Shown: one piece after another, positions 1 to 35,812 of the stretch | How the letters are laid out: the number at the start of each line of letters is the position of its first letter | Numbering within the stretch: the first letter of the stretch is position 1 | IMG/VR virus record: IMGVR_UViG_3300035698_012408 | Length of the DNA stretch: 64,000 nt | Source: a virus | Reading direction: 5' to 3' (one strand) | Notes under the pieces: generated by a model | Database searches by the model: none | What the model was told of the DNA's origin: nothing | Seen by the model: only the letters and a program-made list of their open reading frames with translations | Made by a program: the position numbers and the translations under genes

Positions 1-275
1 CGCCTGGGATGCCTTGGTCGCCGTCTGCACCTGCTGGACCTGTGTACCCAGTAGGTCCGGTCGGCCCAGGAGGGCCGCCACCAGATGGACCTGCGGGACC
101 TGTAACGCCAGTGGGTCCGGTAGCACCCGTGTGCCCTGTGCAGCACGGACCTGTCGGGCCGGTACCGCCAGTGGGGCCAGTGCCGCCCGCACCTGCGGGG
201 CCAGTCCAACCTGTCCAACCTGTTGGACCTCGTGGACCTGTGGGGCCCGTCCAACCTGTCGGTGATGGCACAAAT
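1..275 (-). repeat. Collagen-like Gly-X-Y triplet repeat (coding), interrupted once by a Cys-Cys pair
   Basis: Hand translation of the minus strand gives uninterrupted G-X-Y runs on both sides of GPCCTG. The plus-strand ORFs 9..689 and 14..265 are the antisense image of this repeat. Confidence 0.8.
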
Positions 276-1864
276 GGCGGGAATTGGAAATCAAAGTCAA
301 AGAAATACTCACAATCGGAATCCGCCCCGACTCGCGTGACAGTCACCTCAACCGCAGCTGCTTCCCCTTCCACAACAGTGAGTGCTGCACTGCCGCCAAT
401 GGACGGACAGCCAGAATCAGGAAGTGTGAAGTCGAAGTCAAAGAAATATTCACATTCAGACTCAGTGCCGCCTCGCGTAATGACCAACTCCGCGAGTGGC
501 GTAGCACCAGGAGCTACCTCAACACGCGCACTTCCGTCAATGGACGGACACGGCGGGATAACGACGGGGATCGTGAAATCAAAACCGAAATCAAACTGGT
601 ATTCGCAGCTCGGATTACACGAGTCACCGCCGGTGACTGGTGTGATCGTCAAGTCCACATCAACCGCGGCCGATGGTGTCCCGCCGTAGCCATAGGCTTC
701 GCGGAACTGTGTCGAGACCGTGGCGATCGCAGAACCACCAATGCTTGGACACGGCACGATCGGCTTGGGGATCGTGAAATCGAAGTCGAAGTCGAACTGG
801 TAGTCGCAACTCGGGTTGCAGGAGTCGCCGCCGGTGGTTGGCGTGATTGTCAGGTTTACATCAACAGCTGGGTCGCCGCCGCACGGCACAGTAGAAGACC
901 CGTCAAAGCCGGTATTCACAGTGGCCGAGGCTTGCCCGCTGATTGCCGGACACGGAACGAGCGGTGGTGGAATCGTGAAATCAAAGGTGAAGTCGAACTG
1001 GTATTCACAGCTGGGATTGCACGAGTCTTCTCCGATAACCGGGGTGATCGACAGATCTACGGTGACGGCTGCGGAGTCTTCGCACGTCGGCGCCCCGCCC
1101 TCGTCTTCGTTGACATTGATCGTGGCGGTCGCTGAACCGTCAAGTGTGGGGCATGGGACGACCGGCGGCGGAATCGTAAAATCAAAATTGAAGTCGAACT
1201 GGTATTCACAGCTAGGATTACACGAGTCCTCGCCAAAGACCGGCGTGATCGACAGATCCACGGTGACAGCCGCAGAGTCTTCGCACGTTGGCTCCCCACC
1301 TTCATTGATATTGATCGTGGCGGTGGCCGAACCTTCGAGCGTCGGACACGGTGGTGCGGGGATCGGGATGTAGAAGTCGAAGTCGAAATCAAACTGACAT
1401 GAGTTGTCCGAGTTGCAGCTATCCGTGCCGGGTGTGGACGTGACTGTGATCGCAACCCGCGGCTCATCATTGCAGCCGGCGATCCCAGTGGCCACGGAAA
1501 TGGTACCATCGGCCGAGATCTCGGGACACGGGATGATCGGTGGCGGGATCATCAGATTGAAGTCGAAATCAAGCAGGAAATCGCACGATCCGCATGATTC
1601 CATCTTCGTAACGGTAGCGTCAACCTCGAAACGTGGCTCTTCGCATGGGTTGGTTCCCATAGCAATAGACGCATCAATACTGATGGCTATTTCAGGGCAG
1701 GGAATGGGCGGAGGCGGTACGTCGAACGGGATGTCGATGTCCGGGCAATCGAATATAGGCGGTGGCGCAGGCAGAATGGTGCAATCGCTGATGAAGCGAA
1801 AGTCCAGCTTATCCACATGCGGTACATCGCATTTTTCTTGATCAAATAGTGGTGGCCACGCCAT
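1..1864 (-). CDS. Tail-fibre-like protein, partial (C-terminus beyond the left edge): about eight Cys-rich ~67-aa modules followed by collagen-like Gly-X-Y repeats
   Basis: Absent from the ORF track because it has no stop inside the window. I translated the minus strand by hand from ATG 1864-1862; the in-frame TAG upstream is at 1891-1889. It reads [22 protein letters not shown]... and stays open to base 1. Repeated units end in C(E/D)YQFDFxFDFTIPxPxxPCP. From ~275 to 1 it reads [80 protein letters not shown]. Confidence 0.75.
250..1700 (-). repeat. Tandem ~201-bp (67-aa) coding modules; adjacent central copies are very similar at DNA level
   Basis: The landmark string gg(g)atcgtgaaatc recurs at ~568, 768, 969 and 1170, a period of about 201 bp. 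The units at 969-1169 and 1170-1370 are near-identical by eye. Outer units are more diverged. Confidence 0.75.
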
Positions 1865-1912
1865 CCTGGTATTCCCTGGCCTAAGCGACTAATCATGAGC
1901 CGCGTGTTACAA

Positions 1913-2941
1913 TTATTCTGAATCCAACGACAATGAGCTGCTTACTGCTTCCTCGTCTCCGAGGCACAACGCGAAGTCATCCAATGCTTTGTCAATGACC
2001 AATGTTCCGTCGGTGTCCGAGTAGACCCGGAAACCTGACCCCGCTGTGAGCTGGACGTTCCTGCCGCCGATGCCGTTGATCGTCTTGACGATCTGGCTGC
2101 ATCCGGGTCCGCCAGAGAGATGCGGGCTCCCGGCGGGCGGCGCTTCGCCTTCGTACACTGGCACTTCTTCACAGGGCTCTCCGTCTCCAGAACCGATGCC
2201 GGCTCCAATAATGATCGCATTCTCGCGAGTGTCCTGGCGAATCGTGCAATTGTACCCTTCTTTCCACTCTATATCGCCGTCGATACACAGTGCGGTGATA
2301 TATGGACCGTCTCTAGCGCCTTCGCTCGACGAGAAAGAGCACTCCGGTGGCGGCGTGGCCAGCGTTCGCTGGAAGTTGCCGAGGTTGCATGCTCGCAAGT
2401 AGGAGTCTTTTAGGCTCCGAATCCGACTCGGTTCGATCTGCCAGTAGCCTGCGGGGTACGTGAAGCTGTCACCGCTCGGTAGCAGGTCCGATAATGTCTC
2501 AAAATGCCCCGAAATCATGAAAGCTGACCATCTGGCAGCCTCTTCACAGCTTAACGGGTCCACCGGCTCTCCGACAATAGCAGACGCGTCGGCGTACTCC
2601 ACGAGGAATTCGGATGCGGTGGCGGAGTCGCGGGTGAAAACCACCTCGTGATTGGCCCCGTAGGGTGCAGTTGTCCGAAAACGGAACGTAAAAACGGTCC
2701 CAACACGTGAAATCTCGTATAAATAGACCGAATGGCCGTCGAATTCCGAATAATCCGAGTCAATTTCCATAATTGCACCGAAATCGACGATCGCGGCGTG
2801 CGGAACGTGATAATCTGCCGACAAACTGAGCGACATGGACTCGCTACTGACCTCCACGACGGCGGGTTCCAGTGGAAGCACCTTCGTCGTGAACGGGTAG
2901 TCACGAAATTCGTTGTCGTTGTAAAATCCAGGGTTAGCCAT
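1913..2941 (-). CDS. Tail-fibre / receptor-binding paralogue (342 aa)
   Basis: ORF track, ATG at 2941. N-terminal FRDYPF motif shared with the neighbouring fibre genes. TINGIGGRNVQL fibre-type motif. Ser-rich acidic patches (SSESMSLSLS, SSSLSLDSE). Confidence 0.55.
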   Translation of the reverse strand: MANPGFYNDNEFRDYPFTTKVLPLEPAVVEVSSESMSLSLSADYHVPHAAIVDFGAIMEIDSDYSEFDGHSVYLYEISRVGTVFTFRFRTTAPYGANHEVVFTRDSATASEFLVEYADASAIVGEPVDPLSCEEAARWSAFMISGHFETLSDLLPSGDSFTYPAGYWQIEPSRIRSLKDSYLRACNLGNFQRTLATPPPECSFSSSEGARDGPYITALCIDGDIEWKEGYNCTIRQDTRENAIIIGAGIGSGDGEPCEEVPVYEGEAPPAGSPHLSGGPGCSQIVKTINGIGGRNVQLTAGSGFRVYSDTDGTLVIDKALDDFALCLGDEEAVSSSLSLDSE

Positions 2942-2954
2942 TGCTCATTCTCAG

Positions 2955-3713
2955 TTAAACGGTTTTTCCGATAGCGTCAAACACGAGATTTCCGCCTTCG
3001 GCGAAGACTCGCACGATCGTTTCTTCGTTATGCTGGTCTCCGACTGTGATATTGAAGTTGCCATGCTCGTCCGGCGGACAATTATTGATGCTTTTGATGA
3101 AATTTGGAGTGGTAAACAGGTCAACGACCTCACAATTCTCTCGCAAGAACAGCACATCGCCAACAATATCCACTCGGATGATGGAATCTCCGGCTTGGGA
3201 CACTACCACGCCGTTATCGCCGACAATTAGTGCGTCTTTTGTCAAAACTTCGCCATTTTCTGTCACCAATCCGCGAACTCCGACTTCTGGCGTCGGAATC
3301 ACGCAGGTAGCAGTAAAAGTCGTGGCTACCGGCTCGAACGGGTAGGTCCCAGCGTTCCACGAGCTGAGCCGCGATAGTCGGACGCTCTCGGAGACCAGCA
3401 CACCGGCCGGCCGATCCCAGGTGTCGACGAGGTACAAAACGTCTGGGGCGAACAACGGATCGAAGCGAACGGTGGCCTGGGCCCGTCGTGTTCGATCCGA
3501 CACGGTAATTGTAACATCGCGTGGCGAGATCACGTAGATCTCAGAAATGTAGAGATACCCGAGAGCCCCAATAGGGTAAAGGGACGCGTCGAGGAACAGG
3601 TCAAAATCAATAAGCTGCGTGCCACCGCTCGACAACGTCGCAGTGTCCTTGAATGGATACCGCGTCGGGGCGTACTGATCTCGAAATTCAGGAAATAAAC
3701 GACGCTCAGGCAT
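2955..3713 (-). CDS. Tail-fibre paralogue (252 aa)
   Basis: ATG at 3713 overlaps the upstream stop (ATGCCTGA, 8 nt). PTRYPFKDTAT N-terminal motif. SINNCPPDEHGNFNI fibre motif. Confidence 0.55.
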   Translation of the reverse strand: MPERRLFPEFRDQYAPTRYPFKDTATLSSGGTQLIDFDLFLDASLYPIGALGYLYISEIYVISPRDVTITVSDRTRRAQATVRFDPLFAPDVLYLVDTWDRPAGVLVSESVRLSRLSSWNAGTYPFEPVATTFTATCVIPTPEVGVRGLVTENGEVLTKDALIVGDNGVVVSQAGDSIIRVDIVGDVLFLRENCEVVDLFTTPNFIKSINNCPPDEHGNFNITVGDQHNEETIVRVFAEGGNLVFDAIGKTV

Positions 3714-5367
3714 CTTCTAAGCTCCAAAATCCAAAAGTGGTAATGGCACGGTCTACTACGACTCCGTGCTTGCCGGATGGCGTACCATACCGGCTTGTCT
3801 GCAACGCCGTGGTCACAGCGGGCCAGCCAGGATTATCCAAGTTTCGCACGCTCACGGATATGACAACATCGCCGACAACCGTCGGGTGCTCAACCGCTGT
3901 CACGTCCAGCTCGTACCATGTGCCAAGGCTAAACGGCAAGCCGGGACTGACGGTGAACTCCAGGATCGTCATATTCCCATTATACCGTTTGATCTCGATT
4001 TTATTCGTAACGCGATTCAAAAATACCATGAAGTATTGCAACAGCGGGTTTGTCATCGGATCTTCAACATGGTAATTCAGCACGATGCCGCCATTGATGC
4101 GGCTCCGGCTATCGTTGGTCAATTGCAGATGCGTCCGCACGCGGTGATTGATTGCAGGGTCGCACCCGCAGTCGTCGAAGATCGCGAGATTTCGTTGCCA
4201 ACCTTCAGTGGACTGCCATGCGCTACCGGCATGCAAGGATGATGACGACGGCGGCTGCGCGAAAGAGGGAAGCGAGTCGGATGACGGCTCGTACGGGTCG
4301 AAACTATCGACCAACACGAAGCCACCGGCCCGCACGTCCCAACTCAGGTGTTGATACGGCTCGAAGAACTCCAAGAACGGCAGATCCACGCACACTTCCG
4401 CCTCTGAGGATTCAGAAGGGGTAGGTTGTGGTGGTTCTTCGCTCTCGGAACTCAATGACTCGCTGTCAACACTTGCCGCCGACGACGCACTCATGCTGCT
4501 GCTCTCTATGCAGTAATCTTCACCCGGGAAGCGGTTTACCGTGCCGTCGCCACAAACATCATCGATCCCGAGGGATTGGTTGATTATCACGCCCGCGTCG
4601 TCTGCTCCGCATGACTCGTACGGCGTGGCCTCAAGTTTGTTGAATATGATATTCAAATTGCCGTTGCAGTCAGGCCGCACCCCGTTGACAGTCTCCACAC
4701 CCTCCTTGAGGCAATTTCGGCTCTCCGGTCGCACGCCACACGGCCCGATGTAATCTTTCAGCACGCTGCGGCCGTCCAGAGCATTGATCAGACGAATGAC
4801 GAGGGCTTCTCGCTCCTCGTCGTTCACGTTGACGAACTCTCGGACTATCTCGATGTCTGGGCCTGCTAGGATGCGTACGAGGCCCGTTAGGCCGTCGATC
4901 CGTCCCATCTTCCGCATAGTCGGAATCGGCAACGCATCGTAAGGACGGGCTACGTGGGGAGCGATGAGCCCTTGCTGTGGCGTCGCCAGCCGGATGCTGA
5001 AGTCCTCGGCCACGTCACCGAACACGATGAACCCGCCGACACCTGGGTAAAGAGGCTCCACATTGTAGTAAACGTGGCGAGCTACCGGCTTTTGCAGCGT
5101 CACAGCAGCCAACGGGGTGAACGCACTCGCTGCCGTGGGCGAGTCGGCACCCAGGATCACAGCGGTGACAAGGTTCTCCGTAACCGTCAGGCCGCCAAGA
5201 AACGCATACTGCCCAGCCGTGCTGGGGAATCGCAAGGAGAGGTCGACGACTATGTCATCACGCAGCCGTTTGATCGTATCGTCATCCGTACCGGTAGCCG
5301 TGTCGTCCAGCGGATACCGTCGCGACATCTGTGCGTTGAACCAGTTTTGATTACGAAGGGTACTCAT
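3706..5367 (-). CDS. Tail-fibre paralogue (553 aa)
   Basis: ATG at 5367 directly abuts the stop of the giant gene (TAAATG). SRRYPLDDTATG N-terminal motif. TVNGVRPDCNGNLNI motif. Ser/Glu linker SSSMSASSAASVDSESLSSESEEPPQPTPSESSEAE. Confidence 0.55.
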   Translation of the reverse strand: MSTLRNQNWFNAQMSRRYPLDDTATGTDDDTIKRLRDDIVVDLSLRFPSTAGQYAFLGGLTVTENLVTAVILGADSPTAASAFTPLAAVTLQKPVARHVYYNVEPLYPGVGGFIVFGDVAEDFSIRLATPQQGLIAPHVARPYDALPIPTMRKMGRIDGLTGLVRILAGPDIEIVREFVNVNDEEREALVIRLINALDGRSVLKDYIGPCGVRPESRNCLKEGVETVNGVRPDCNGNLNIIFNKLEATPYESCGADDAGVIINQSLGIDDVCGDGTVNRFPGEDYCIESSSMSASSAASVDSESLSSESEEPPQPTPSESSEAEVCVDLPFLEFFEPYQHLSWDVRAGGFVLVDSFDPYEPSSDSLPSFAQPPSSSSLHAGSAWQSTEGWQRNLAIFDDCGCDPAINHRVRTHLQLTNDSRSRINGGIVLNYHVEDPMTNPLLQYFMVFLNRVTNKIEIKRYNGNMTILEFTVSPGLPFSLGTWYELDVTAVEHPTVVGDVVISVSVRNLDNPGWPAVTTALQTSRYGTPSGKHGVVVDRAITTFGFWSLEDA

Positions 5368-11157
<5,790 letters not shown>

Positions 11158-11176: not shown

Positions 11177-12127
11177 TTAACACTCGATACAACCCTGGTC
11201 GGACAGCCTGCTACCGAGCACGACGTTACTCATCTGTGTCACCTCGGAACCGAGGGTGCTTGCAAAGTTCTGAAGTGTCAGCACGCCGTCAGCAAATCGT
11301 TCGATCTGCCGTGTCAATGCTTCCAGCTCTTCACAACCGCAGCACGGCTCTGAACACTTATCCTCAAACATTAGCCCGTTATCAATCGGGCTGAGCTCCA
11401 TGCACTTGTTCCCGACCATGCGGAAATTACCGTTGGGTAGCGGCGGAATACCGTTGATGAAGCGGATGCAGTCGCCTTCACCTTCCTCTTCACATACGCA
11501 GTCTTCGTTAAGCCCTTCACCGTCGATAGCGGAGAACACAATGACGGGAGCCTCCGTGCCGACCTGACTTGCGGTGATCCGCATGTTGTCGCCGGCTATG
11601 AGTTCCACGTCACCGTAGATCGGTTCGCTTCGGTCAGCACCATTGACTACCGTGAGCCCGGCGATCCCTCGCACCATCGGGTTGATAGCGTCAGACTCCA
11701 GCGTGGTGGCGGCCGGATCAAATATGTACTCACCGGGGGGCAGCATGTCCACAGTATCGAGCACGGCGATCGTGACATACCCGAACGTGTCGTAGAAGTC
11801 ACCAGCACCGGGCAGCGCGTAGGTCATGCCTTCAACGTGGCCGAGACGTGTCACGCTCGTGCTGGCGACGATCGGCGGACTGGTTGTGCCGTCATCGTAG
11901 CCAAATACAAGCGTGTAACCCGTGGGATAGATCCCGAGCCGCTGAAGATAGAATTTCGTCGGTTCCACCGCCAATCCGGCATGGACTGGTAGATCTAAAC
12001 CGATAATGAAGTCGTCTGGCAACTCAATCGTTTCAGTCTGGTCTTTGCCGCTCCCCTCGTCGAGGAACGGATAAGACCGTTGACTGTTATGATTGGGCCA
12101 TTGTAAATTCCAGTGTGTCATACCCAT
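11177..12127 (-). CDS. Tail-fibre paralogue (~316 aa)
   Basis: The track start is 12145. I prefer ATG 12127: AAGGAG lies 8 nt upstream and there is a TAATG overlap with the endonuclease stop. SQRSYPFLDEGSG N-terminal motif. FINGIPPLPNGNFRM fibre motif. Confidence 0.55.
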   Translation of the reverse strand: MGMTHWNLQWPNHNSQRSYPFLDEGSGKDQTETIELPDDFIIGLDLPVHAGLAVEPTKFYLQRLGIYPTGYTLVFGYDDGTTSPPIVASTSVTRLGHVEGMTYALPGAGDFYDTFGYVTIAVLDTVDMLPPGEYIFDPAATTLESDAINPMVRGIAGLTVVNGADRSEPIYGDVELIAGDNMRITASQVGTEAPVIVFSAIDGEGLNEDCVCEEEGEGDCIRFINGIPPLPNGNFRMVGNKCMELSPIDNGLMFEDKCSEPCCGCEELEALTRQIERFADGVLTLQNFASTLGSEVTQMSNVVLGSRLSDQGCIEC

Positions 12128-12858
12128 TATGCCGACTCCTTGCATTTACTGTATTGTGCCTTTTTCCTATCGCAATTACAGCGACGACAATATGCAGCAA
12201 ATCCTGCCGGTTGTTGTTTGTCTTTGTTAAAGTGCTGTCTATCTTTGTATTTACGACATTTTGAGCACCATATTTTATTATTTAAGACTTTTATCGGACG
12301 ACTCGCCGGGGCGATGATTGTAGCCTCCCACTCGGTACTGGTCTGACTGGCATACCGGCATAACCACCGTTTATGGTGTCGTGCTTTGCCACCCGCTACG
12401 CGGGACATCGCATTATGCGTTAATTCATTGTCCCGACAAAAAGCGTACAAATTCGTAATGACTTGCGAGAAACCGTCTGGATTCGTAACGATATATGTTT
12501 TACTCTTTGCCGCTAATATCGCTGCTTTACACTTCGGAGACTGCGGCACACCCCGCGTGTTACCAGCAGTAGCGCAAATGTTGAAACCTGTGGCTGCGCA
12601 GTTCAAAGTGTCAATCCAGTATTGTTCTTTTTCAAGCAACTGCTGCTGGTCACACAACTCAATCACCTCACACGTGAACGTGGACTCTCCGTATTTTACC
12701 CACGCAGCCTGTAAATGCGGATTAACATGGGAACCGCTACGTAACTGCGACAAATGCCGCGAGTACCAACGACGGTATATATTTGCACTGCTGCCAACGT
12801 AAATCTTCTCGTTTGCAGCACAACAAATTTTATAAATTCCAGCAAGTTTAGGTAACAT
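12127..12858 (-). CDS. GIY-YIG homing endonuclease (free-standing, I-TevI/Seg-like)
   Basis: N-terminal GIYKI...IYVGSSANIYRRW...H...L..GSHVNPHLQAAWVKYG...F.......E.YWI matches the GIY-YIG catalytic core. It is followed by a NUMOD3-like GVPQSPKCKAAILAAKSK and the nuclease-associated FCRDNELTHNAMSRVAGGKARHHKRW module. The C-terminus has a CxxC...CxxC cluster. The segment is visibly AT-richer than its flanks. Confidence 0.85.
   Translation of the reverse strand: MLPKLAGIYKICCAANEKIYVGSSANIYRRWYSRHLSQLRSGSHVNPHLQAAWVKYGESTFTCEVIELCDQQQLLEKEQYWIDTLNCAATGFNICATAGNTRGVPQSPKCKAAILAAKSKTYIVTNPDGFSQVITNLYAFCRDNELTHNAMSRVAGGKARHHKRWLCRYASQTSTEWEATIIAPASRPIKVLNNKIWCSKCRKYKDRQHFNKDKQQPAGFAAYCRRCNCDRKKAQYSKCKESA
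12127..12858 (-). mobile_element. Homing-endonuclease gene insertion between two fibre-module genes
   Basis: There is a compositional dip (long A/T runs such as tttattatttaagactttt) within an otherwise GC-rich block. The gene fills the gap between CDS 12862..14796 and 11177..12127 exactly. Confidence 0.7.
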
Positions 12859-15468: not shown

Positions 15469-17076
15469 TTAATAGCAAGTGCCGCTGATTACTCGGAGCG
15501 TTACGCGGCTATCATTTACCATGCTGTCCGGCACGGTATCCGCTAGAGGCTCCAAACCATCAAAAAACGAAACTTCCTCGGTTAATTTATCCACATCCAC
15601 TACGTCGGCCTGCGCTGAGATCTCCACCAGCAGAATCATAGCCGTGTTCGGCGGCACGATCTTTGTCAGCAGCCGGGCGTTGTGCAACCCGATCTGATCT
15701 GTTCCGGTCGTAGCTACCTTCACTTTGACCAAATACGCATTGTTTCGTAAGACGTTTTCAATCAAAAACTGGAGTGGGTTTATGGTCGTCGGTAATTGTG
15801 CCGCTGTTGGTTCCCCAATTTTCTCGTCTCGGGTATCTAGCAAGTGTGCCAGCGTCCCGCGTCTGGCGGACTGCATGGTCTCATCGCAATCGCTCGGCGG
15901 ATACCAGACCTGTTCACACTCCTCACAATCATCGACAGGCCTCAAAGCCTCCTCCACGCCTCGGGCGTGCAGTAGATCGAAGAACGCATCTACGTCAAGC
16001 GGGAACCCTCCAAGCGGCCATGTCAGTTTGGTAAAGCCGCTCGGGTCATCAGTGATAACTGTGAGCGGTACGTCTTTGTTCTCAAACACCAGTTCCGAGT
16101 AAAAACAGCTCGCCAGCCAGCCGTCGCCCATAGCGAGAGCTGACAAATCGGACGGTGTCTCTCCACGATTGAATTCATAAAATGCCAACGTGTCCGTCAG
16201 CGTGTCGCCCCGCTGCACGACATCGCCGACCTCGACGATCGGTGTCGCGTTCAGGTGGAACGAGTACGAGTGCTGGTCAGTTATGATCAACCGGTGTCGC
16301 CGGTCGACCCTGATGTCCACAACAGTCTCCGCGGTCTCTCGCACGAGCGGTACCCCAGTCATCGCGGAGAACGCTGTCATGATCTGCCGTTTCGCCGTGC
16401 CGCCTACCATCGCGTCATACAAGGCGTTCATGATCTCTCGATAGCCAAGGCTGCTCTGCATCCTCGCACCGATCGCGTAACCGAACTGCTTATACACCGT
16501 GTCCCAGTCGAACTCTCCGCGGAATACCCACAGCAGTGCTTCTTCATCAACTGCGATACCGTCTTCGTAAACCGTGCGTTTCGCCACGCGGACGTCGTCG
16601 AACGGGTTTGTATTGAAAATTATGGCGTTGTCACGCAACACGTAATCGACGCCGGCCTGCCACGTCAGTGTCGGATCAGTGAAGCGATTCAGGATCAACG
16701 GCACGGTGACAAGGTCAGCCGGTCGCGGGAACGCATGATCTGGGCGGTCCTGCGGGACATCGTAAAGGTCACCGTCCCCGTAATCTGCATCGTCACCATA
16801 CCGCAGCAGCGACGTGTCGACATTGTTCCTCTCGCTCTGCCGCACATACATCGCATACCAGTTGTCGGTATGGTAAATCGGTACGGTGTAACGGCTGAGC
16901 GCGGCAATGAGCGACAGCACGTCCAACATTGTCTGTTGCTCTACCTGAGCCTTCCCCATCACCACTGCTTTGACTTGGTCATTGCCGTTATACGTGTCCG
17001 CCCACCAGCCGCCCAACAGGGCCAGCAGGTTATTTGGTTTATCATAAACATTTGCTGGGTATGTGTACTCTGCCAT
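15469..17076 (-). CDS. Baseplate wedge-type protein (535 aa), in the position of P2 gpI / T4 gp7-class proteins
   Basis: TAATG overlap with the J-like gene upstream. The call rests on gene order only. Confidence 0.35.
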   Translation of the reverse strand: MAEYTYPANVYDKPNNLLALLGGWWADTYNGNDQVKAVVMGKAQVEQQTMLDVLSLIAALSRYTVPIYHTDNWYAMYVRQSERNNVDTSLLRYGDDADYGDGDLYDVPQDRPDHAFPRPADLVTVPLILNRFTDPTLTWQAGVDYVLRDNAIIFNTNPFDDVRVAKRTVYEDGIAVDEEALLWVFRGEFDWDTVYKQFGYAIGARMQSSLGYREIMNALYDAMVGGTAKRQIMTAFSAMTGVPLVRETAETVVDIRVDRRHRLIITDQHSYSFHLNATPIVEVGDVVQRGDTLTDTLAFYEFNRGETPSDLSALAMGDGWLASCFYSELVFENKDVPLTVITDDPSGFTKLTWPLGGFPLDVDAFFDLLHARGVEEALRPVDDCEECEQVWYPPSDCDETMQSARRGTLAHLLDTRDEKIGEPTAAQLPTTINPLQFLIENVLRNNAYLVKVKVATTGTDQIGLHNARLLTKIVPPNTAMILLVEISAQADVVDVDKLTEEVSFFDGLEPLADTVPDSMVNDSRVTLRVISGTCY

Positions 17077-18716
17077 TATGAGCCTCGGTTTACGACGTTC
17101 AGTCCAATATCCTCAGCGTACAATATGAACGTGGCGGTGTTTCCCGTCACAAGTGTACTCGGAGAATCGGGCAACCATAACTCGTGCTTGTCACGGATGA
17201 CAGCGCGCGTCCCGTCCGGGCGGCGAATCATCCCGTGCATGTCGACCGCACTCACGGCCATCGACCCTTCCAGGTAGTCATGGATCAGGTCAGTGATCTG
17301 CGAGGCGTATAACACGCCTGGGAAATCCAGATTGTTTACCATCGACGCCAGGGCCTGCTTGATCGGATCGAGATCCGGTGCCGTCTCGCCAGTGTCTTTG
17401 ATGACATCGCAGTTGATCGACAAGAAGCACGGGACGCACGCCTTCACCAGCACGTCCGCCATGATATTGGCATGGTCGGCATCGACAGCGAACGCCTGGA
17501 GCTCGGTGATAAGCGGCATGGCCTGCACCGCCACGCTGTAGTCCGCGGTGTCGCCGATCGCAAGATCAACAACCGACGTAGCTGTGTCCTGGAATCGGAT
17601 TACCGCCGTCTGGTAGCGGGTGTAGGCAGCCTCCACGGCAGTCTTGATGTCTGGAATGAACGAGTCGCTGCCGAGATCGTAGCCACGGTCGTCGTAGACC
17701 ACCTCGAAACCGGCGATGTCCGTCGGGTCGTCCGGCCGGCGGATTTGCGAAACTTGGTAGAAGCCAGCGGCGTCATCACGATTTAACGCGAACTGCCAGA
17801 CCCCGCCACCACCGAGCTTCTGAACGAGCACGCACTCTTTTCGCAATGCCACGCTCTGTGGCGTCAGTGCTGGTCTCGCGTAGATGTCGACACGGCCGCC
17901 GCCGGATACCGGGAAGATCCAATGCTGGTCACGCTCCATCTCGGGATCACCATAACCGATGATCGAGTAGTGCAGCGTGTCCGCGAGTGCGGGCAGCGAC
18001 TTGAAGAGTGCGATAATGTTCTGTCGCCCTTGCATCACCTTGGCCGGGATGCCTTCGTCAAGGCGGTTGATCAGATTCTCATTGTCTTCCGTGGCCGTGC
18101 CGCCCTGGAAGTCATTGGACGCGTAAGCCGTGGCGAAGCGAGACGGTATCGTCTCTGGCGTGAATTTGGTGTTCTGCCGGACATTGCCGGCCTCGCCTAC
18201 GTCGTTGGCCGTGATAGGCACGGTGAACTCGTATGACCCGTCACCGCGAGGTTCCAGCGTCCGCTGGTCGAAGCTGGAGGCCGGGGAGCCGGGCGGGTTG
18301 GCTACGATCGGATAGTCCACCGTAAAGTTCTGCCCGTTCGCGGTATAGGTCGAGTTGGCAGAGATTACGACGCTCGTGCTGCCCTCGTATACCAGGGTCA
18401 TCTCACCCTTCGCGCGGGTGCCGATCTTTCGCTCGATCATGAAGTTCGACAGCACGTCGTCGACAAGATCGTCGTCGGCCAGCGTGGGATTCTCATTGAG
18501 CACGAGCAAGCTACGCGCATCCAGCACGTTGTTGACTTCCGTCTGATTGACGCCACCGGAGATGCCGCCAGCCATAAATGCGACAATATCGTGGATTACG
18601 CCACGAGACAGTTCGACTTCCGGGTAGCGCTCTTGAATGAGCTCAGAGAGCTCAGCTTGCGCCTGCGTAACAACGTCCGGGTCGAGTTGTGAAATGTCTG
18701 TTACTTTGAGACCCAT
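17076..18716 (-). CDS. Baseplate J-like protein (P2 gpJ / Mu gp47 / T4 gp6 class)
   Basis: The track start 18731 is a GTG. I prefer ATG 18716, with GGTGGAGGG 7 nt upstream. Segment FMIERKIGTRAKGEMTLVYEGSTSVVISANSTY resembles the Baseplate_J signature (R..A..A.G.v.f......i..gt). It follows a gp25-like gene. Confidence 0.55.
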   Translation of the reverse strand: MGLKVTDISQLDPDVVTQAQAELSELIQERYPEVELSRGVIHDIVAFMAGGISGGVNQTEVNNVLDARSLLVLNENPTLADDDLVDDVLSNFMIERKIGTRAKGEMTLVYEGSTSVVISANSTYTANGQNFTVDYPIVANPPGSPASSFDQRTLEPRGDGSYEFTVPITANDVGEAGNVRQNTKFTPETIPSRFATAYASNDFQGGTATEDNENLINRLDEGIPAKVMQGRQNIIALFKSLPALADTLHYSIIGYGDPEMERDQHWIFPVSGGGRVDIYARPALTPQSVALRKECVLVQKLGGGGVWQFALNRDDAAGFYQVSQIRRPDDPTDIAGFEVVYDDRGYDLGSDSFIPDIKTAVEAAYTRYQTAVIRFQDTATSVVDLAIGDTADYSVAVQAMPLITELQAFAVDADHANIMADVLVKACVPCFLSINCDVIKDTGETAPDLDPIKQALASMVNNLDFPGVLYASQITDLIHDYLEGSMAVSAVDMHGMIRRPDGTRAVIRDKHELWLPDSPSTLVTGNTATFILYAEDIGLNVVNRGS

Positions 18717-18731
18717 CCCTGGTCCCTCCAC

Positions 18732-19690: not shown

Positions 19691-20482
19691 TTACACCCCG
19701 TGCCGTTCATCGAGTTGCTCCTGAATCCGTGCTTTCCGCTGACTCACGGCTCCAGGTGAGATTCCGAGCCGCTCTGCGATTTCTCTGTTCTCCAGCACAG
19801 GGGAATTATGCTTACCCAGTGTGAAATCCAAAACCGCTTGATCAACAGGTCCAAGGTCCTGGTATACCATTTCTTCCCACATAACTCCAGCCACATCTGT
19901 GCCAGGAACCGTAGAAGCCGGTGAGTAAGGGGCTCCGGTCTCGTCTGTCAGCGAGCCAGTATTGACCCCGGGCTGCGCCTGCCGAACGTAGCCGATACGC
20001 TTCAATGATAGCCCCGTACTGGCGGCAATCTCCGCGTCACTCGGGTCACGCCCCAGATCCTCGCGTAGTCGCTCCTCGTCATCGACCAAATGCTGCCGAT
20101 CGAGTATGACACCCTCCGGGATGCCGATAATCTGCCTGGATTTCCCCTGAACTCGTTGCAATCCGCGGAGTTGCGACAGCAGATGCGTCTTCATCGTGCC
20201 CTGCTGTGGGTCATACGAATCGAAGGCCCGCAATGCCATGAGTCTTGCTTGACTCTTCGCATGTGGGCCGCCGGTTGGGGCGTACGAGTGGACTGCGGTG
20301 CTCAGGATCGGATCAACCGCTCGCAGCAACGCACCCCGCGTGGTGGCGTCTGGTTTCTTCTGCCACGCCGTAAATGCTTCCGTGTAGGGTTGTTCCATCC
20401 GCTGGTTCGCCGAAGCACCGCCACCGAACGGCATAGTGTCATCCAGCACGGATTTCGGCCTGTTTTTATATTCAGTCGGCAT
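19691..20482 (-). CDS. Sigma-70 family RNA polymerase sigma factor (regions 2, 3 and 4 recognisable)
   Basis: Start re-set to ATG 20482, with GGAGGAG 7 nt upstream and 1 nt after the upstream TAA. Region 2-like ARLMALRAFDSYDPQQGTMKTHLLSQLRG. Region 3-like LGRDPSDAEIAASTGLSLKRIGYV. Region 4 HTH NREIAERLGISPGAVSQRKARIQEQL. Confidence 0.75.
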   Translation of the reverse strand: MPTEYKNRPKSVLDDTMPFGGGASANQRMEQPYTEAFTAWQKKPDATTRGALLRAVDPILSTAVHSYAPTGGPHAKSQARLMALRAFDSYDPQQGTMKTHLLSQLRGLQRVQGKSRQIIGIPEGVILDRQHLVDDEERLREDLGRDPSDAEIAASTGLSLKRIGYVRQAQPGVNTGSLTDETGAPYSPASTVPGTDVAGVMWEEMVYQDLGPVDQAVLDFTLGKHNSPVLENREIAERLGISPGAVSQRKARIQEQLDERHGV

Positions 20483-20483
20483 A

Positions 20484-22109
20484 TTAAGTCTCCTCCGGTG
20501 CCACTTGCGGTACCATCGTACCACCTACCCACTTATTCACGTAAAGCGGCGGACCCGCCACGGACGTCTGCGGTTCTGTGTTTTCCTGCTCCGTTCGGAT
20601 ATGAGCAAGCGTGAAGGCCGTTCCAGCCTTCTGGCTCTCTGAGTTGATCAGATAGGATACTTGCATCACGGTGCCGTAGATGTCCTCTACGAGGTCGTCC
20701 TGCTGGATATTCCTGGCTCCCCCCGCTTTTACCAGCACATTGGAACCCGGGCAGATGTCGAATCGTAGTTTACCCGACAGCTCACCGATGCGTCCCTTCA
20801 ATGATTCTAACACAAACCACTGATGGGCGTAAGCGCTCATCACGCCCTTCTGCGCCACTTGATCGGCCAATATGTCATTGGCGGGGAATTGTGGCTTACC
20901 CGTGACCTCGTCAACGCTGGTGCCGATCGGATCACCCTCAACCCCCTGCGACGTTGCTGAAAAGACGTAAGGTATGACAGAGTCAGCCAGCCACTTCGGT
21001 GCAGATTTAAGCAGCACGACGCCCTTTTTTTGTCCGTCTGGCTGATACCACCCAGCGCAGCCGCCACGATCCAGCTTCATCGCACCACGATTCATGTCCC
21101 AGCCAGACATTGACATGACTGGATGCGTAATGCCAACCGCCCTGAGCACCTGATGCAGCTGGGCGTTCAAATCTGACTGCACGTAATCTTCAGTACCGAT
21201 TACCGCCCACGGCTCACCTTGCAGGCCGCCGGCGAATGGGACGATCAGACAGTCCTCGACACGTGGAATCACCGAGAAAAAATATGACGGGGCATATTCG
21301 CCTACCAGTTTTCCCCAAAGCGTAGTATTGGTAAAATTCTGGTTAGTCTCATTGAGCAACGCTTGCGCCAGTCCATGCTGAATCACTGCACCGTTGGACC
21401 CATTGAGGTCCACCGCCAGCGGGGCGTCGGGATCGACAATGATTCGTGTCAACGCATCTTTGCTATTATCGTCACCGCCGCCGGGCTGCCCGCCAAGCAG
21501 GCTCACCTCGAACGGATCATCATCCGTTATGGCCATCATCCACGGCTTCAGCGTGTTTGTCCACAGATCATCCTGGAATGTTGCCACCAACGAATCGTCA
21601 ACGATGGGAATCCAGGTTGGGTTACCGCCGGCGCCTTCGTCGTCGCCTCGCCCCAGTGCCCTATAGGCCGCGGGGTACGTGTAGTCAGATGGGTTACCAG
21701 GGTGTGACGATGCGGAGATCGCCGACGTGTAATTGAGGTCACCGAGCCAGTGAAGCATGTTGATCGTAAAGTGAGCACCTTCATAACCCCGCCGCCAGCC
21801 GGTTCCGACAATTTTACCTTCAAAGATCTTCATCCGCACCTGATCCGGTACCCCGGGCTCGGCACTCTCCACCTGCGTGACAGTTGCCGTCAGGAAAACC
21901 TCGATCTTCTGTTGTTGCTTCAGGCTACTGATAGCAGAATGAATCGTGGCTGGATTTCCCGTCGCCACGTTACGACCAACAGCAACCAGTAGCGACGCCG
22001 TCGGGATGCTGTTCATCGCCCACGAGGATGCGTACTGCACCACGTCGTCGAACAGAAAGCCCGCGACTTCGGCTTCAACCTTCAGTTTTATTACAGCAAA
22101 AGGTGGCAT
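20484..22109 (-). CDS. Baseplate hub candidate (gpD / Mu gp44 / gp27-VgrG class), 541 aa
   Basis: Start re-set to ATG 22109 (MPPFAVIKLKVEAEV...), with a TAATG overlap with the upstream stop. Lies after the tape measure and before the gp25/J-like genes. Confidence 0.4.
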   Translation of the reverse strand: MPPFAVIKLKVEAEVAGFLFDDVVQYASSWAMNSIPTASLLVAVGRNVATGNPATIHSAISSLKQQQKIEVFLTATVTQVESAEPGVPDQVRMKIFEGKIVGTGWRRGYEGAHFTINMLHWLGDLNYTSAISASSHPGNPSDYTYPAAYRALGRGDDEGAGGNPTWIPIVDDSLVATFQDDLWTNTLKPWMMAITDDDPFEVSLLGGQPGGGDDNSKDALTRIIVDPDAPLAVDLNGSNGAVIQHGLAQALLNETNQNFTNTTLWGKLVGEYAPSYFFSVIPRVEDCLIVPFAGGLQGEPWAVIGTEDYVQSDLNAQLHQVLRAVGITHPVMSMSGWDMNRGAMKLDRGGCAGWYQPDGQKKGVVLLKSAPKWLADSVIPYVFSATSQGVEGDPIGTSVDEVTGKPQFPANDILADQVAQKGVMSAYAHQWFVLESLKGRIGELSGKLRFDICPGSNVLVKAGGARNIQQDDLVEDIYGTVMQVSYLINSESQKAGTAFTLAHIRTEQENTEPQTSVAGPPLYVNKWVGGTMVPQVAPEET

Positions 22110-32866: not shown

Positions 32867-35812
32867 CTATACGACCAAGTGCAGCTCGATGTTGTTCAAC
32901 GGGTACGGGACAACGAGATCCACGATGATCACAACGCGATCCGCAGCAAGCGGATGGATGTAGATCATCGGTGCTTCCGTCTCCGGGTCCAAACGAATCG
33001 ACCCGCTGACCAGCTGCGCACCAAGTTCGGTCGTCACACCGTTGCTCTTGAGGAACTTGATCGTCTGGTTGACATGATACTCCAACGCGCGGAGCATCGT
33101 CGGCGTTGCATTGCTGCGACCGATGTACGGGCGGAGACGTCGCAGGAACAGGTAGGACATCGAGTCCACGTTCCGGCGAACCATCTCTTCCTTTCGATTC
33201 AGGTCGAGCATGTTGGTGGTCAACGCGTGTCGCGTATGCGGCGTGCCGTCACGGTCTTCCGTGCCGATCCACACACCACCCGCAGCGAGTTCGTCCAGCT
33301 GGCTGTCGCTGAAGTAATCACGGGTGCGAGACGACAGATCATCGAAACCAGCGATTTCGACGTTCGTCAGGCCCTGCTGCGGTACGACACCGGACGCGAG
33401 TCCAGCGAGAGCACAGCACAGGAAATAGCCATCTTGCGCGTTACCACCGGTACCGACAATGTCCGGCCACACCACACAGACGCGGCGATCCGCGAAGCTC
33501 TGGGCGATGTCGACGATCGCTTCGACGAGTTCTCCCTTTTCCTGGGTATGCCAGATTTCGATCTTCTGGGCAACCGAGATCGGGCTGCTGTGGCCGCTGA
33601 GCAGCAACAGCGAACTCTGGGAAAGCACGGTGTCCACGATAAACTCGCTGTACGACTGATTGCCGAACGCGTCAATCGTGTAGAGGAATCGCACAACATC
33701 ACCAGCTTCCACACCGTAGGTGATGAAACCAGCGTTGCTGTCCGGGACACTCAGCAGCGTGTACTGAATGGCCGTGGCATCCGGGTTGTCTTCCAACGTA
33801 GCCAGCACGACTTCGCCGTCGATGGACGTCGGAGTGAGAGCTTGCGTATCCGCATCGCTCTTTCCAACAACCATCTTCGTAGCAGGCGTCTTGGCGTTGA
33901 CGAACATCGCCTTCCAGTTGCCCGACTCCGCCGAGCTCTCGCTCGTGACGTGGGCCTGGAAGAGATTGTGAACCTCACGGGTATACGTGAGAGGCACGAA
34001 GTTGTAAAGGTCATCACGACCATCAACCCGTTCGAGCACGTCTTGCCAGCTGTCCAGATCGTCCGGGTCGGCGACGGCCGTGTAGGCCACCTTCGTACCG
34101 TTCGAGTTCTGGAGAGCACGGTAGACGCCCCACTTGAGCAGATTGAGCTCATCGAGCTGTCCGGGTATCTCGTCGATGTCGGCCACGTCGTCAATGAAAT
34201 TGACTTCGTCAGCCAGATCCGACAGCCATTCCCGATACTCGATGTACTGGATGCCCCACGAGTTCGGATCGGTGGTGCTGGCCAGTCGGCCATCCCACAC
34301 GGTCATCGGCTGTTCCACGCCGCTGTCCGTCCAATCGGCGTCGTAAGCCGTGATACCGGCCTTGACCGCCAACTGCGTCGATTCGATTTCGTAGTTGACC
34401 AGCGGGGGACTGCTGAGACGTGCTTCCGTGACTTCGATGGTCTTCGGAATGAAGAGTCGAAGATCCAGATCAGTTGCGCTCTGGATGGCGATCGGAAGAT
34501 CGTCTTGCAGGGTCAGCGTGCGGATCGGCCCGTTGGCTCCGCTAACGACCGAGACATAGAACTTATCGCCGGTCCGTAGACCTGCGAGGGAGCCGTCGCC
34601 GAGCGACACGCTGCTGGCACTGTCGATCGATTGCACACTGGAACCCTGGCAATCAACGAACTGAGCCGTGAGACCCCACGCACCGACGGGGAAGGCCACA
34701 CTGTCACTGGTGACCGTCGTCGGACCAGAGCTGTCCAATCCCTTGACCGTCGTGACGGTAACTTCGGGAAGGTCAGCCCACAAGCCACCCTTGGTGACTT
34801 CGACGACGTAAGTGTCAATGTCGGGACCTGCATAGCTGTCGTCGACAACTTCGAGACAGCCACGCTCGAACGCCTGGGTGGCGTCGATTTCCCACTTTTG
34901 ACCGACCACGAATTGGTCGCTCTCAACCGACTCCGAAGAAGCCGATAGCGAACAATCACCAGTCGTGGTGTTGAACTGCACTTCCAGCCCGCGGGTACCG
35001 ATCTCAACCCAGTCACCGAAGTCACCAGGATCAACCTCATCCACGTTGTCCGTGCCCGAGTCACTGACGATTCGCAGTCGCGCGGCTTGACAACCCGCGA
35101 TGGACGAACGAATGACTTCGACCTCGTACCGTTCGTTGACGTACCCGTCTTCCAGGCCGTCATAGTCGGCATTCGAGTTGGTGAGACCAACGCAGTTGAC
35201 GACACCATCGATTTGATCCGACGTAACAACCGCGGCGGTAGAGAGTTGGTTGTTGTCATCAACCGTGGCCGGGAACACGGTGGCAGCAACGGTATCGGCG
35301 GCAAAGCCGGTAACGGTGGTCCACAGGTCGTGCTCGTCACAGGCGCTGCCGACACCGGTCACGCCACGCACGTAGGCGACATCACCCACTTGCACGTCGC
35401 GGTCGAGGAACAGCCCGGAACGGGGCCATTGCGTGCCGTTAGCTTTGTAGCTGAGGGCCGAGGATCGAATCCAATTCTTCCGAGTGGAGACAGGCTGCAC
35501 AAGCCCGCGACCTTCAGAAGCATCGCCGATCAGGTCCTCATGGTACAGGAGCAGGGCGTCCTCGATCATGAGACGCACACTGGCCTCATCAACGAGTGAG
35601 CCAGCTTGACGTTCGGGCCACGGATAGACCGCGTCGTCATCTTTATCATACGGTCCGACGTTGATCAGGATCTTCTCGTCGTCCTCGTCGTAACGATGGA
35701 GCAACGCGTTCGGTCCCGAGATATGTGCTCGGAGCGGATCGGTCACCTCGTTGGGGACGATGCTAAATTCCTGAAAAACGAGAACCTGCGGTTTCACATA
35801 AGTGACAGACAT
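32867..35812 (-). CDS. Contractile tail sheath protein candidate (981 aa)
   Basis: Lies immediately upstream of the tube-sized gene. The C-terminal region LDLNRKEEMVRRNVDSMSYLFLRRLRPYIGRSNATPTMLRALEYHVNQTIKFL resembles the conserved sheath C-terminal domain. Confidence 0.55.
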   Translation of the reverse strand: MSVTYVKPQVLVFQEFSIVPNEVTDPLRAHISGPNALLHRYDEDDEKILINVGPYDKDDDAVYPWPERQAGSLVDEASVRLMIEDALLLYHEDLIGDASEGRGLVQPVSTRKNWIRSSALSYKANGTQWPRSGLFLDRDVQVGDVAYVRGVTGVGSACDEHDLWTTVTGFAADTVAATVFPATVDDNNQLSTAAVVTSDQIDGVVNCVGLTNSNADYDGLEDGYVNERYEVEVIRSSIAGCQAARLRIVSDSGTDNVDEVDPGDFGDWVEIGTRGLEVQFNTTTGDCSLSASSESVESDQFVVGQKWEIDATQAFERGCLEVVDDSYAGPDIDTYVVEVTKGGLWADLPEVTVTTVKGLDSSGPTTVTSDSVAFPVGAWGLTAQFVDCQGSSVQSIDSASSVSLGDGSLAGLRTGDKFYVSVVSGANGPIRTLTLQDDLPIAIQSATDLDLRLFIPKTIEVTEARLSSPPLVNYEIESTQLAVKAGITAYDADWTDSGVEQPMTVWDGRLASTTDPNSWGIQYIEYREWLSDLADEVNFIDDVADIDEIPGQLDELNLLKWGVYRALQNSNGTKVAYTAVADPDDLDSWQDVLERVDGRDDLYNFVPLTYTREVHNLFQAHVTSESSAESGNWKAMFVNAKTPATKMVVGKSDADTQALTPTSIDGEVVLATLEDNPDATAIQYTLLSVPDSNAGFITYGVEAGDVVRFLYTIDAFGNQSYSEFIVDTVLSQSSLLLLSGHSSPISVAQKIEIWHTQEKGELVEAIVDIAQSFADRRVCVVWPDIVGTGGNAQDGYFLCCALAGLASGVVPQQGLTNVEIAGFDDLSSRTRDYFSDSQLDELAAGGVWIGTEDRDGTPHTRHALTTNMLDLNRKEEMVRRNVDSMSYLFLRRLRPYIGRSNATPTMLRALEYHVNQTIKFLKSNGVTTELGAQLVSGSIRLDPETEAPMIYIHPLAADRVVIIVDLVVPYPLNNIELHLVV

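Follow-up and report, generated by a model that had tools for sequence, protein, structure and literature searches.

What is encoded at the left end of the 64,000-nucleotide (nt) viral sequence IMGVR_UViG_3300035698_012408 (an IMG/VR record, referred to at its full length as the window), and what might the product do? For positions 1 to 1864, a list of open reading frames (ORFs) offered only plus-strand and short out-of-frame ORFs, and a reading made from the letters alone (the sequence-only reading) had proposed an unlisted gene on the minus strand. We found that the minus-strand gene is real and that it encodes a protein of roughly 986 amino acids (aa) in which a conserved N-terminal segment is followed by eight Cys-rich modules, a collagen-like region, and a C-terminal domain. 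The gene belongs to an uncultured contractile-tailed jumbo phage (~215 kb) known from salt-lake metagenomes, and its product, judged from sequence and gene order, is probably a trimeric virion fiber, most likely a tail fiber.

Reverse-complement translation of window positions 1 to 1864 gave 621 stop-free codons on the minus strand, from the ATG at 1864-1862 down to position 2, which bears out the claim that this frame stays open to the edge of the window. The other five frames contain 5 to 43 stops each over the same positions, and with the base composition of the window as the model, the chance of 621 open codons is ~3e-10. Upstream, the frame is closed by a TAG at 1889-1891; since no ATG, GTG, or TTG lies between this stop and the ATG at 1864, the latter is the earliest possible start. 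The deduced product begins with MAWPPLFD…. The ORF lister skipped the gene because its frame runs past the end of the window, and plus-strand and out-of-frame ORFs were listed instead.

1 to 1864, minus strand: 5′ 63% of the fiber gene (621 of ~986 codons), the rest lying beyond window position 1; seen from the open frame, homologues P0001 to P0010, and the continuation on contig L013
1862 to 1864, minus strand: start codon ATG; the N-terminus of the product aligns with homologues from residue 1
1873 to 1877, minus strand: Shine-Dalgarno-like AGGGA, a candidate read from the sequence

The plus strand carries ORFs at 9-689, 284-1135, 816-1373, and 1404-1841, and these would be the true genes if the minus frame were open by chance or through its repeat composition. 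They are long (145 to 283 aa), and in one assembly of the region (L005), the minus frame would be broken by the loss of 1 nt at window position 381. However, the frame is intact in four of five assemblies, the remaining large ORFs of the window are all on the minus strand, and the minus-strand product has homologues reaching E = 8e-162, 177 family representatives, and a conserved gene order. Furthermore, TTA, CTA, and TCA, which become stops when read on the opposite strand, make up only 5 of the 621 sense codons, and their near absence accounts for the long plus-strand ORFs; relatives of the gene carry equally long antisense ORFs, of up to 453 aa. The plus-strand ORFs are shadows of the minus-strand gene, and the reading in which they are the genes in use is effectively refuted, with next to no probability left to it.

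The product opens with a conserved segment in which F7, C12, C28, C56, and P57 are invariant in 34 family members. It continues with the module array (aa 58 to 535), in which a hidden Markov model (HMM) of the module found eight copies of 47 to 67 aa each, with E values of 5e-10 to 1e-29. Secondary structure from AlphaFold2 (AF2) is given for the modules that were modeled.

1694 to 1864, minus strand: conserved N-terminal segment, aa 1-57, rich in Pro and Cys and ending in PCP; putative virion-attachment part
1523 to 1693, minus strand: module M1, aa 58-114; AF2 strands 59-69, 78-90, and 93-105
1343 to 1522, minus strand: module M2, aa 115-174; AF2 strands 116-126, 136-145, and 156-165
1148 to 1342, minus strand: module M3, aa 175-239, from the module HMM; DNA 81% identical to that of M4
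947 to 1147, minus strand: module M4, aa 240-306, 201 bp, from the module HMM
746 to 946, minus strand: module M5, aa 307-373, 201 bp, from the module HMM; AF2 hairpin
545 to 745, minus strand: module M6, aa 374-440, 201 bp, from the module HMM; AF2 hairpin
404 to 544, minus strand: module M7, aa 441-487, short form with two Cys, from the module HMM
260 to 403, minus strand: module M8, aa 488-535, short form with one Cys and without the closing Cys-Pro, from the module HMM

The sequence-only reading had described about eight tandem modules, each closed by C(E/D)YQFDFxFDFTIPxPxxPCP. Its count was right, and the quoted motif is exact in M3 to M6 but not in M1, M2, M7, and M8, which carry looser variants; all eight modules close with an ending of the C-x-Y-x-FDFxFDF-x-IPxPxxPCP type. 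M7 and M8 represent a minimal form of the module with three predicted strands. The window part of the product is strongly acidic (isoelectric point ~4; 86 Asp plus Glu versus 12 Lys plus Arg). Because the acidic positions are conserved across the family, they are likely to be structural and not merely an adaptation to salt.

Relatives of this protein are rare. A word-indexed search of 5.8 billion clusters returned only 10, all unnamed. The HMM search with a module alignment that had been recommended for this locus was carried out exhaustively with a two-module profile against 1.84 billion representative proteins and returned 177 unnamed representatives at E <= 1e-3 (131 at <= 1e-10 and 75 at <= 1e-30), the longest of 3,346 aa. 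We define the FD-module family by an N-terminal part of the form PPLFD..C..DF.F..DC...P.PPPI(F/Y)DC and, behind it, at least one module that ends in C-x-(F/Y)-x-[FLI]-D-[FLIV]-D-[LF]-(D/E)-[IL]-x-[IV]-P-x-P-x-x-P-C-P. The window protein has both parts, with an E value of 1.4e-28 for the N-terminal HMM and with its eight modules. The module defines a rare, unnamed family, seen solely at this place in the gene order of related giant phages.

Architecture statistics were drawn from 153 analyzed family sequences, of which 144 have at least one module. The N-terminal segment stands at the start of 92 of these 144, and the number of modules per protein ranges from 1 to 22 (median, 5). Runs of at least eight consecutive Gly-X-Y triplets occur in 31 members, in 26 of them after the last module, with totals of up to ~170 triplets. 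More than 30 unrelated types were distinguished among the regions that follow the modules, the largest with 43, 19, and 6 members and the rest mostly singletons. Pfam and PHROG matches in the family representatives are confined to the collagen segments; PHROG tail fiber families match the collagen part of the fiber protein and do so strongly in its relatives. Two other Pfam matches were rejected: Bc2l-C_N in the relative P0011 (summed score, 68 bits), where no single stretch passes and the sum is a pile of weak repeat matches that the window protein does not share, and Polyketide_cyc, which is subthreshold (E = 0.0094).

The consensus of 794 unique modules reads …T.T.T(P/K/R)…C(N/D).P(C).C(E/D)-F-D-(F/I/V)-D-(L/F)-(D/E)-(I/L)-x-(I/V)-P-I-P-x-P-P-C-P. 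Compared with this consensus, the all-Phe strand of the window modules is one flavor of a broader alternation of hydrophobic and acidic residues. Most often, a module has four Cys residues, of which one lies in the first loop, two precede the last strand, and one belongs to the closing P-C-P. Presence of the loop Cys is associated with presence of the second pre-strand Cys (odds ratio, 2.9; P = 4e-7), a pattern compatible with, but no proof of, two disulfides per module.

What fold might such a module adopt? AF2 modeled a module pair (44 aligned pairs) as one long hairpin per module, with a predicted local distance difference test score (pLDDT) of 77.3 and a predicted template modeling score (pTM) of 0.50. 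For residues 1 to 174 (34 aligned N-termini; pLDDT, 77.8; pTM, 0.53), it predicted three strands per module and no regular secondary structure in residues 1 to 58. These models point to a three-stranded beta-meander. Foldseek found no significant match for either model; the best E values were 2.1 and 0.3 against PDB and 0.39 against BFVD, at template modeling scores below 0.25, and the top matches, long beta-hairpins of pore toxins and flagellar rings, were dismissed as noise at that level.

The sequence-only reading had not recognized the FDFDF module, and it is indeed undescribed: we found no match for it in Pfam, PHROGs, NCBIfam, PDB sequences (0 matches for the module profile), PDB folds, or BFVD folds. 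Neither sequence nor fold matched the Ig-like and other repeats of phage shafts (Pfam Big_1/2 and the Phage_fiber families). Among the part of the full-text matches to "FDFDF" that was covered, which are unrelated or concern synthetic peptides, there was no published description of the module or of the N-terminal segment.

Near-identical central copies with a 201-bp period had also been reported, and the array had been considered probably unstable through recombination. The 201-bp spacing is real for four copies (M3 to M6), but DNA identity is only 45 to 81%. The best pair, M3 and M4, is 81% identical in DNA and 88% identical in protein, and its longest exact match runs to 25 nt; DNA identity in the remaining pairs is 45 to 65%, and the array is absent from Tandem Repeats Finder output. 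Since the copies are not near identical, the inference of instability does not follow for this array. Over the fiber gene, four independent assemblies match the window with 100% identity, the fifth likewise shows no change in copy number, and no joint that alters copy number was present in the contigs of four sequencing runs, in which rare variants are beyond reach. Instability is not supported for this genome. The single-nucleotide deletion in the fifth assembly (L005; JGI Ga0207997_1023388), which would frameshift module M8, reflects an error of sequencing or assembly or else a broken allele carried by a minority. In the relative P0001 (L001 10724-11299), three consecutive 192-bp module units are 96 to 100% identical in DNA; this recent tandem expansion indicates that module expansion does occur in the lineage.

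After M8, the sequence switches to Gly-X-Y repeats with a GPCCTG interruption, as the sequence-only reading had noted.

1 to 256, minus strand: first part of the collagen-like region (aa 537-621 out of 537-847), rich in G-P-T and briefly interrupted; Gly-X-Y from nt 256
140 to 145, minus strand: Cys574-Cys575 of the first GPCCTG interruption (aa 572-577), read from the sequence

Every assembly that carries the fiber gene ends inside this collagen-like part, so we sought the 3′ end through gene order. In relatives, a GT9-domain gene sits 2 to 4 kb downstream of the orthologue. A homologue search with the relatives' GT9 protein led to protein P0178, carried on contigs L013 (from the same sample as contig L008) and L014. 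Both contigs open with a 3′-partial gene followed by two TPR genes and the GT9 gene, the order that follows the orthologue P0009 in contig L010. The first 138 nt of L013 are exactly the last 138 nt of the window gene fragment in contig L006, and through this overlap the C-terminus, for which a leftward extension had been recommended, was recovered.

The composite gene has 2,961 nt and encodes 986 aa. Its collagen-like region (aa 537 to 847; 311 aa) holds 96 triplets in 12 runs, the longest of 29, with Pro at 45% of X positions and Thr at 44% of Y positions; the 11 short interruptions make kinks possible. GPCCTG occurs three times in the composite, and Cys-Cys pairs lie at aa 574, 718, and 735, the last two beyond the window. 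Cys within the collagen part recurs across the family, and the Cys-Cys interruptions would fit a possible role as cross-links (knots) between chains. The window part scores 20.9 bits against the Pfam Collagen model (PF01391), below the gathering cutoff of 27.2, and the L013 continuation scores 81.4 bits (E = 3.9e-23).

The composite closes with a noncollagen C-terminal domain of 139 aa. BclA_C (PF18573) aligned to this domain over profile positions 30 to 127 of 128, but at 14.2 bits (E = 0.04), below its 38-bit threshold, and a search of PDB sequences gave no BclA match. A jackhmmer search found no relatives of this head domain among the 153 family sequences. With the collagen C-terminus as the query, a protein search at E <= 1e-10 found no match, at a cutoff too strict for such a low-complexity query.

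The distal piece has its own complication. Window positions 1 to 127 form a node in the Logan graph with ~2.2-fold depth, which an alternative path from upstream (…GITGPTGPC) meets at position 131. The depth ratio of the alternative to the main path at the 1-131 node is 0.64 in run X1 and 1.36 in run X2, and this difference suggests either an internal duplication left unresolved by assembly or a second, co-occurring variant with the same distal gene part. A second upstream path into the distal collagen piece is as expected of mosaic fiber genes or of an internal repeat. A paralogue within the window as the source of this path was ruled out by an ORF scan, in which no other ORF of the 64 kb carried a module, the N-terminal segment, or Gly-X-Y runs. 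The fiber architecture is the same whichever way the join is resolved.

Where does the gene lie in the phage genome? In the context listed next, the earlier suggestion of a phage fiber agrees with the presence of a sheath, a baseplate wedge, and distal genes on the same strand.

32867 to 35812, minus strand: tail sheath, indicating a contractile tail (phrog_279, 2.3e-07)
19691 to 20524, minus strand: sigma-70-like factor with regions 3 and 4, within the tail/baseplate block just upstream of the wedge
17076 to 18731, minus strand: baseplate wedge, Baseplate_J/gp6-like (Pfam PF04865, 4.9e-10; phrog_6, 1.4e-16)
5368 to 11157, minus strand: ORF of 1929 aa, with no family, PDB, or phage match
1913 to 5367, minus strand: three genes upstream of the fiber gene (342, 252, and 553 aa), with size and order kept beside every family member examined
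L013 1246 to 5571, downstream of the fiber gene, beyond the window: a pair of TPR-repeat proteins (354 and 360 aa) and a generic GT9 (heptosyltransferase-type) protein of 726 aa

After the wedge, the block continues with products of 535, 214, 644, [endonuclease], 322, 1929, 553, 252, and 342 aa, and the fiber gene comes last. This succession of gene sizes also stands ahead of the family member in six other contigs or contig sets from different samples (L001, L002-4, L010, L011/12, L017, and the P0007 contig). The 342-, 252-, and 553-aa products gave no family, PDB, or phage-record match. Searches of 50,697 GenBank phage records, by megablast with window positions 1 to 6000 and by tblastn with the fiber protein and three neighbors, found no match, and phmmer against PDB with five neighboring proteins found nothing meaningful. 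An exact-pattern scan of IMG/VR also gave no match, and the sole match in a metagenome scan was a 2.5-kb contig that likewise ends within the collagen part. For the GT9 protein, 598 homologues were obtained at E <= 1e-30, many from contigs of >200 kb, and its gene follows the family member in five of the seven contexts examined. Neither protein nor lipopolysaccharide glycosylation could be assigned to it; the TibC/Aah model scored 16 bits against a cutoff of 200. The presence of a sigma factor and of a heptosyltransferase-type gene suggests that the host is a bacterium, probably Gram negative.

The window holds further features that stand apart from the fiber gene.

12127 to 12858, minus strand: GIY-YIG homing endonuclease with HNH-like and Lar-like parts (phrog_314, 1.9e-19)
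57383 to 61870, minus strand: RNA polymerase ORF of 1495 aa with Rpb2 domain 6 and Rpb1 domains 1-2 (beta/beta′ fusion)
54241 to 56142, minus strand: RNA polymerase ORF with Rpb1 domain 5

The endonuclease separates the 644-aa and 322-aa genes, which are adjacent without an insert in L001, L002, L010, L011, and L017. The slot of the 1929-aa ORF is occupied by products of 538 to 992 aa in relatives and of 1876 aa in the L006 gene call; this is a second gene of variable length and is possibly fiber-like. This split and fused multisubunit polymerase is only ~31% identical to its closest counterparts in cultured phages (Salmonella phage Arash and Vibrio phages D181, D148, and D69). Two pairs of minus-strand ORFs (20484-22211/22109-22903 and 38154-39200/39145-40209) overlap by ~50 to 100 nt as listed from the first possible start, and their true starts probably lie further downstream.

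Taken together, these results bear on what the protein does. Its gene is distal to the baseplate genes in a tail block on one strand, in the same slot in six relatives, and its proximal end is conserved and its distal end variable among relatives, as in the tail fiber and receptor-binding class. The window part has no signal peptide or hydrophobic segment (maximum Kyte-Doolittle value, 1.1), from which we conclude that the protein is not exported by the cell. To our knowledge, collagen-like rods are obligate trimers in all characterized cases. From the constant N-terminus, the variable repeat shaft, the collagen rod, the interchangeable heads, the distal position, and the lack of an export signal, we infer a trimeric host-recognition fiber, probably a distal tail fiber or receptor-binding protein.

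A fiber of this kind could instead sit on the capsid, neck, or collar, as a decoration, head fiber, or whisker comparable to SPP1 gp12 or T4 fibritin, and could serve reversible surface adhesion or particle stability and not primary receptor binding. Collagen-like trimers that bind capsids exist (SPP1 gp12; PMC7602432), the sequence evidence for a fiber is the same for both placements, the gene ends the structural block at a distance of nine genes from the wedge, and the larger 1929-aa neighbor (5368-11157; 538 to 1929 aa among relatives) could be the true long tail fiber. However, the gene lies in the tail/baseplate part of the window with no recognized head gene adjoining, no capsid-binding domain is recognizable, and the extreme diversity of the C-terminal heads is a feature more of receptor-binding proteins than of capsid decorations. 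We consider a capsid or neck location unlikely, although it is the most credible of the alternatives.

The neighborhood of the gene also raises the idea of a BclA-type extracellular or matrix glycoprotein outside the virion, set free at lysis or exposed on the infected cell, modified by the GT9 and TPR neighbors, and acting in adhesion, aggregation, or shielding. BclA itself is a glycosylated collagen-like trimer with a short N-terminal anchor (PMC10470788, PMC8968730); the protein described here has a G-P-T-rich collagen and a small C-terminal domain with a weak, near-full-length BclA_C match, and a conserved GT9-domain gene follows in most contexts. Against this, there is no signal peptide or membrane segment, the gene is tightly spaced among late structural genes that share its strand, and the BclA_C match is far under threshold; the GT9 domain is generic, with a TibC/Aah score far from its cutoff. 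A role outside the virion is therefore very improbable in our judgment.

Several points nevertheless weigh against a trimeric tail fiber. Outside the Gly-X-Y repeats, nothing in the protein matches any characterized tail fiber domain, family, or fold, and the PHROG matches are compositional and limited to the collagen part (aa 527 to 621). The AF2 models are of monomers and of moderate confidence (pTM, 0.50 to 0.53), and the Cys count is odd in 40% of modules. The join between the 5′ and 3′ parts crosses the double-depth node, so the composite may miss a collagen stretch or mix two variants. All seven genes between the wedge and the fiber gene also have no assigned identity, which makes gene order the sole basis of the placement; the downstream TPR, TPR, and GT9 genes are not obviously structural; and no RNA sequencing run was found to hold the region.

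On the preferred reading of a tail fiber, we hypothesize that the conserved 57-aa Pro/Cys-rich N-terminus docks the fiber to a conserved virion partner, for which the 342-, 252-, and 553-aa upstream products are candidates. The eight modules would form a stiff shaft, each folding as a three-stranded beta-meander. The last strand of each module, in which Phe, Leu, or Ile alternates with Asp or Glu, would present one hydrophobic face, to the core or between chains, and one acidic face; the FD strands would form the core of the shaft, and the Cys residues and P-x-P-x-x-P-C-P hinges would fix successive modules. Once the particle meets an oxidizing medium, the Cys residues (typically four per module) and the hinge may cross-link the shaft. 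The G-P-T-rich collagen-like triple helix would lengthen the shaft and set the register of the trimer, with the three GPCCTG motifs as possible knots, and the C-terminal head would contact the host. Behind a constant N-terminus, the lineage swaps module number (1 to 22), collagen length (0 to ~170 triplets), and head type (>30), as expected of a determinant of host range.

A bolder version of this model holds that the FD array is a new trimeric beta-shaft rigidified after release by disulfides within or between chains (from the four Cys residues of each module and the Cys-Cys knots of the collagen rod) and possibly by Asp-bound cations and that the clade-conserved TPR-TPR-GT9 products chaperone the Thr-rich collagen and glycosylate it, yielding a BclA-like fiber. 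We regard this version as improbable. If it were true, the host-recognition organ of a phage would be a BclA-like glycosylated collagen fiber.

Tail fibers decide which hosts a phage can infect, and those of uncultured jumbo phages are almost wholly unannotated. A searchable family, with the N-terminal segment and FD modules as its marks and 177 representatives, flags a probable host-recognition gene across a whole clade of phages of the 200-kb class that occurs in metagenomes of salt lakes and other environments. This gene evolves through changes in module number, collagen length, and head type. Its collagen-like repeat breaks each short-read assembly at the same place, so the gene is systematically truncated and missed by ORF callers. 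The FD module is without structural precedent and is a good target for structure determination and for protein engineering scaffolds.

How does this fiber compare with known systems? The collagen region of BclA, from the exosporium of Bacillus anthracis and Bacillus cereus, is G-P-T rich. BclA resembles the phage protein in its short N-terminal anchor, its collagen-like trimer, its C-terminal domain of ~130 to 140 aa, and the glycosyltransferase genes nearby. However, BclA is a spore protein of Firmicutes without a module array, and the protein described here is a phage protein whose BclA_C match reaches only E = 0.04.

For the module array, the closest parallels are the repetitive beta shafts of trimeric fibers. 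The shaft of the adenovirus fiber is a triple beta-spiral. Repetitive beta shafts also occur in T4 gp34/gp37 (PMC5537660) and, as a triple-stranded beta-helix, in T4 gp5 (PMC4576200). Like these, the array consists of tandem short beta-strand repeats that would form a thin rod in a trimer, and repeat number varies among relatives. In contrast, the FD modules are longer (47 to 78 aa) and have two to five Cys residues, a Pro-rich hinge, and an aromatic/acidic strand, and they have no sequence or fold match. The nearest physical analogy for the FDFDF strand is synthetic: designed Pro-(Asp-Phe)5-Asp-Pro peptides form beta-sheets in which Phe faces pack together and Asp residues point toward solvent and cations (PMC6473879). 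These peptides, like the modules, have a strand of alternating Phe and Asp bracketed by Pro, and the analogy is a physical one only. Because the alternation puts all Phe residues on one face and because the peptides pack through that face (PMC6473879), the FD strands are the likely core of the shaft.

Collagen-like segments have been found in other phage proteins. SPP1 gp12 is a phage collagen-like trimer that projects from the particle and is thought to be adhesive (PMC7602432), as the predicted trimer would be here, but it is small, binds the capsid, lacks a module array, and has a different gene context. The side-tail proteins EPclA and EPclB of Escherichia coli O157:H7 prophages are trimeric, thermally stable, and dumbbell shaped and have been proposed to be host-attachment fibers (PMC3368898). 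Like them, the protein described here is phage encoded and consists of an N-terminal part, a collagen rod, and a C-terminal domain (PMC3368898). EPclA and EPclB have an alpha-helical coiled coil and recognized phage fiber N- and C-terminal domains, which are lacking here; in their place, this fiber has eight Cys-rich beta-meander modules, as predicted, together with Cys-Cys interruptions in its collagen and an unrelated head. A phage fiber with a collagen-like segment is thus known, and what is new here is the shaft module and the N-terminal segment.

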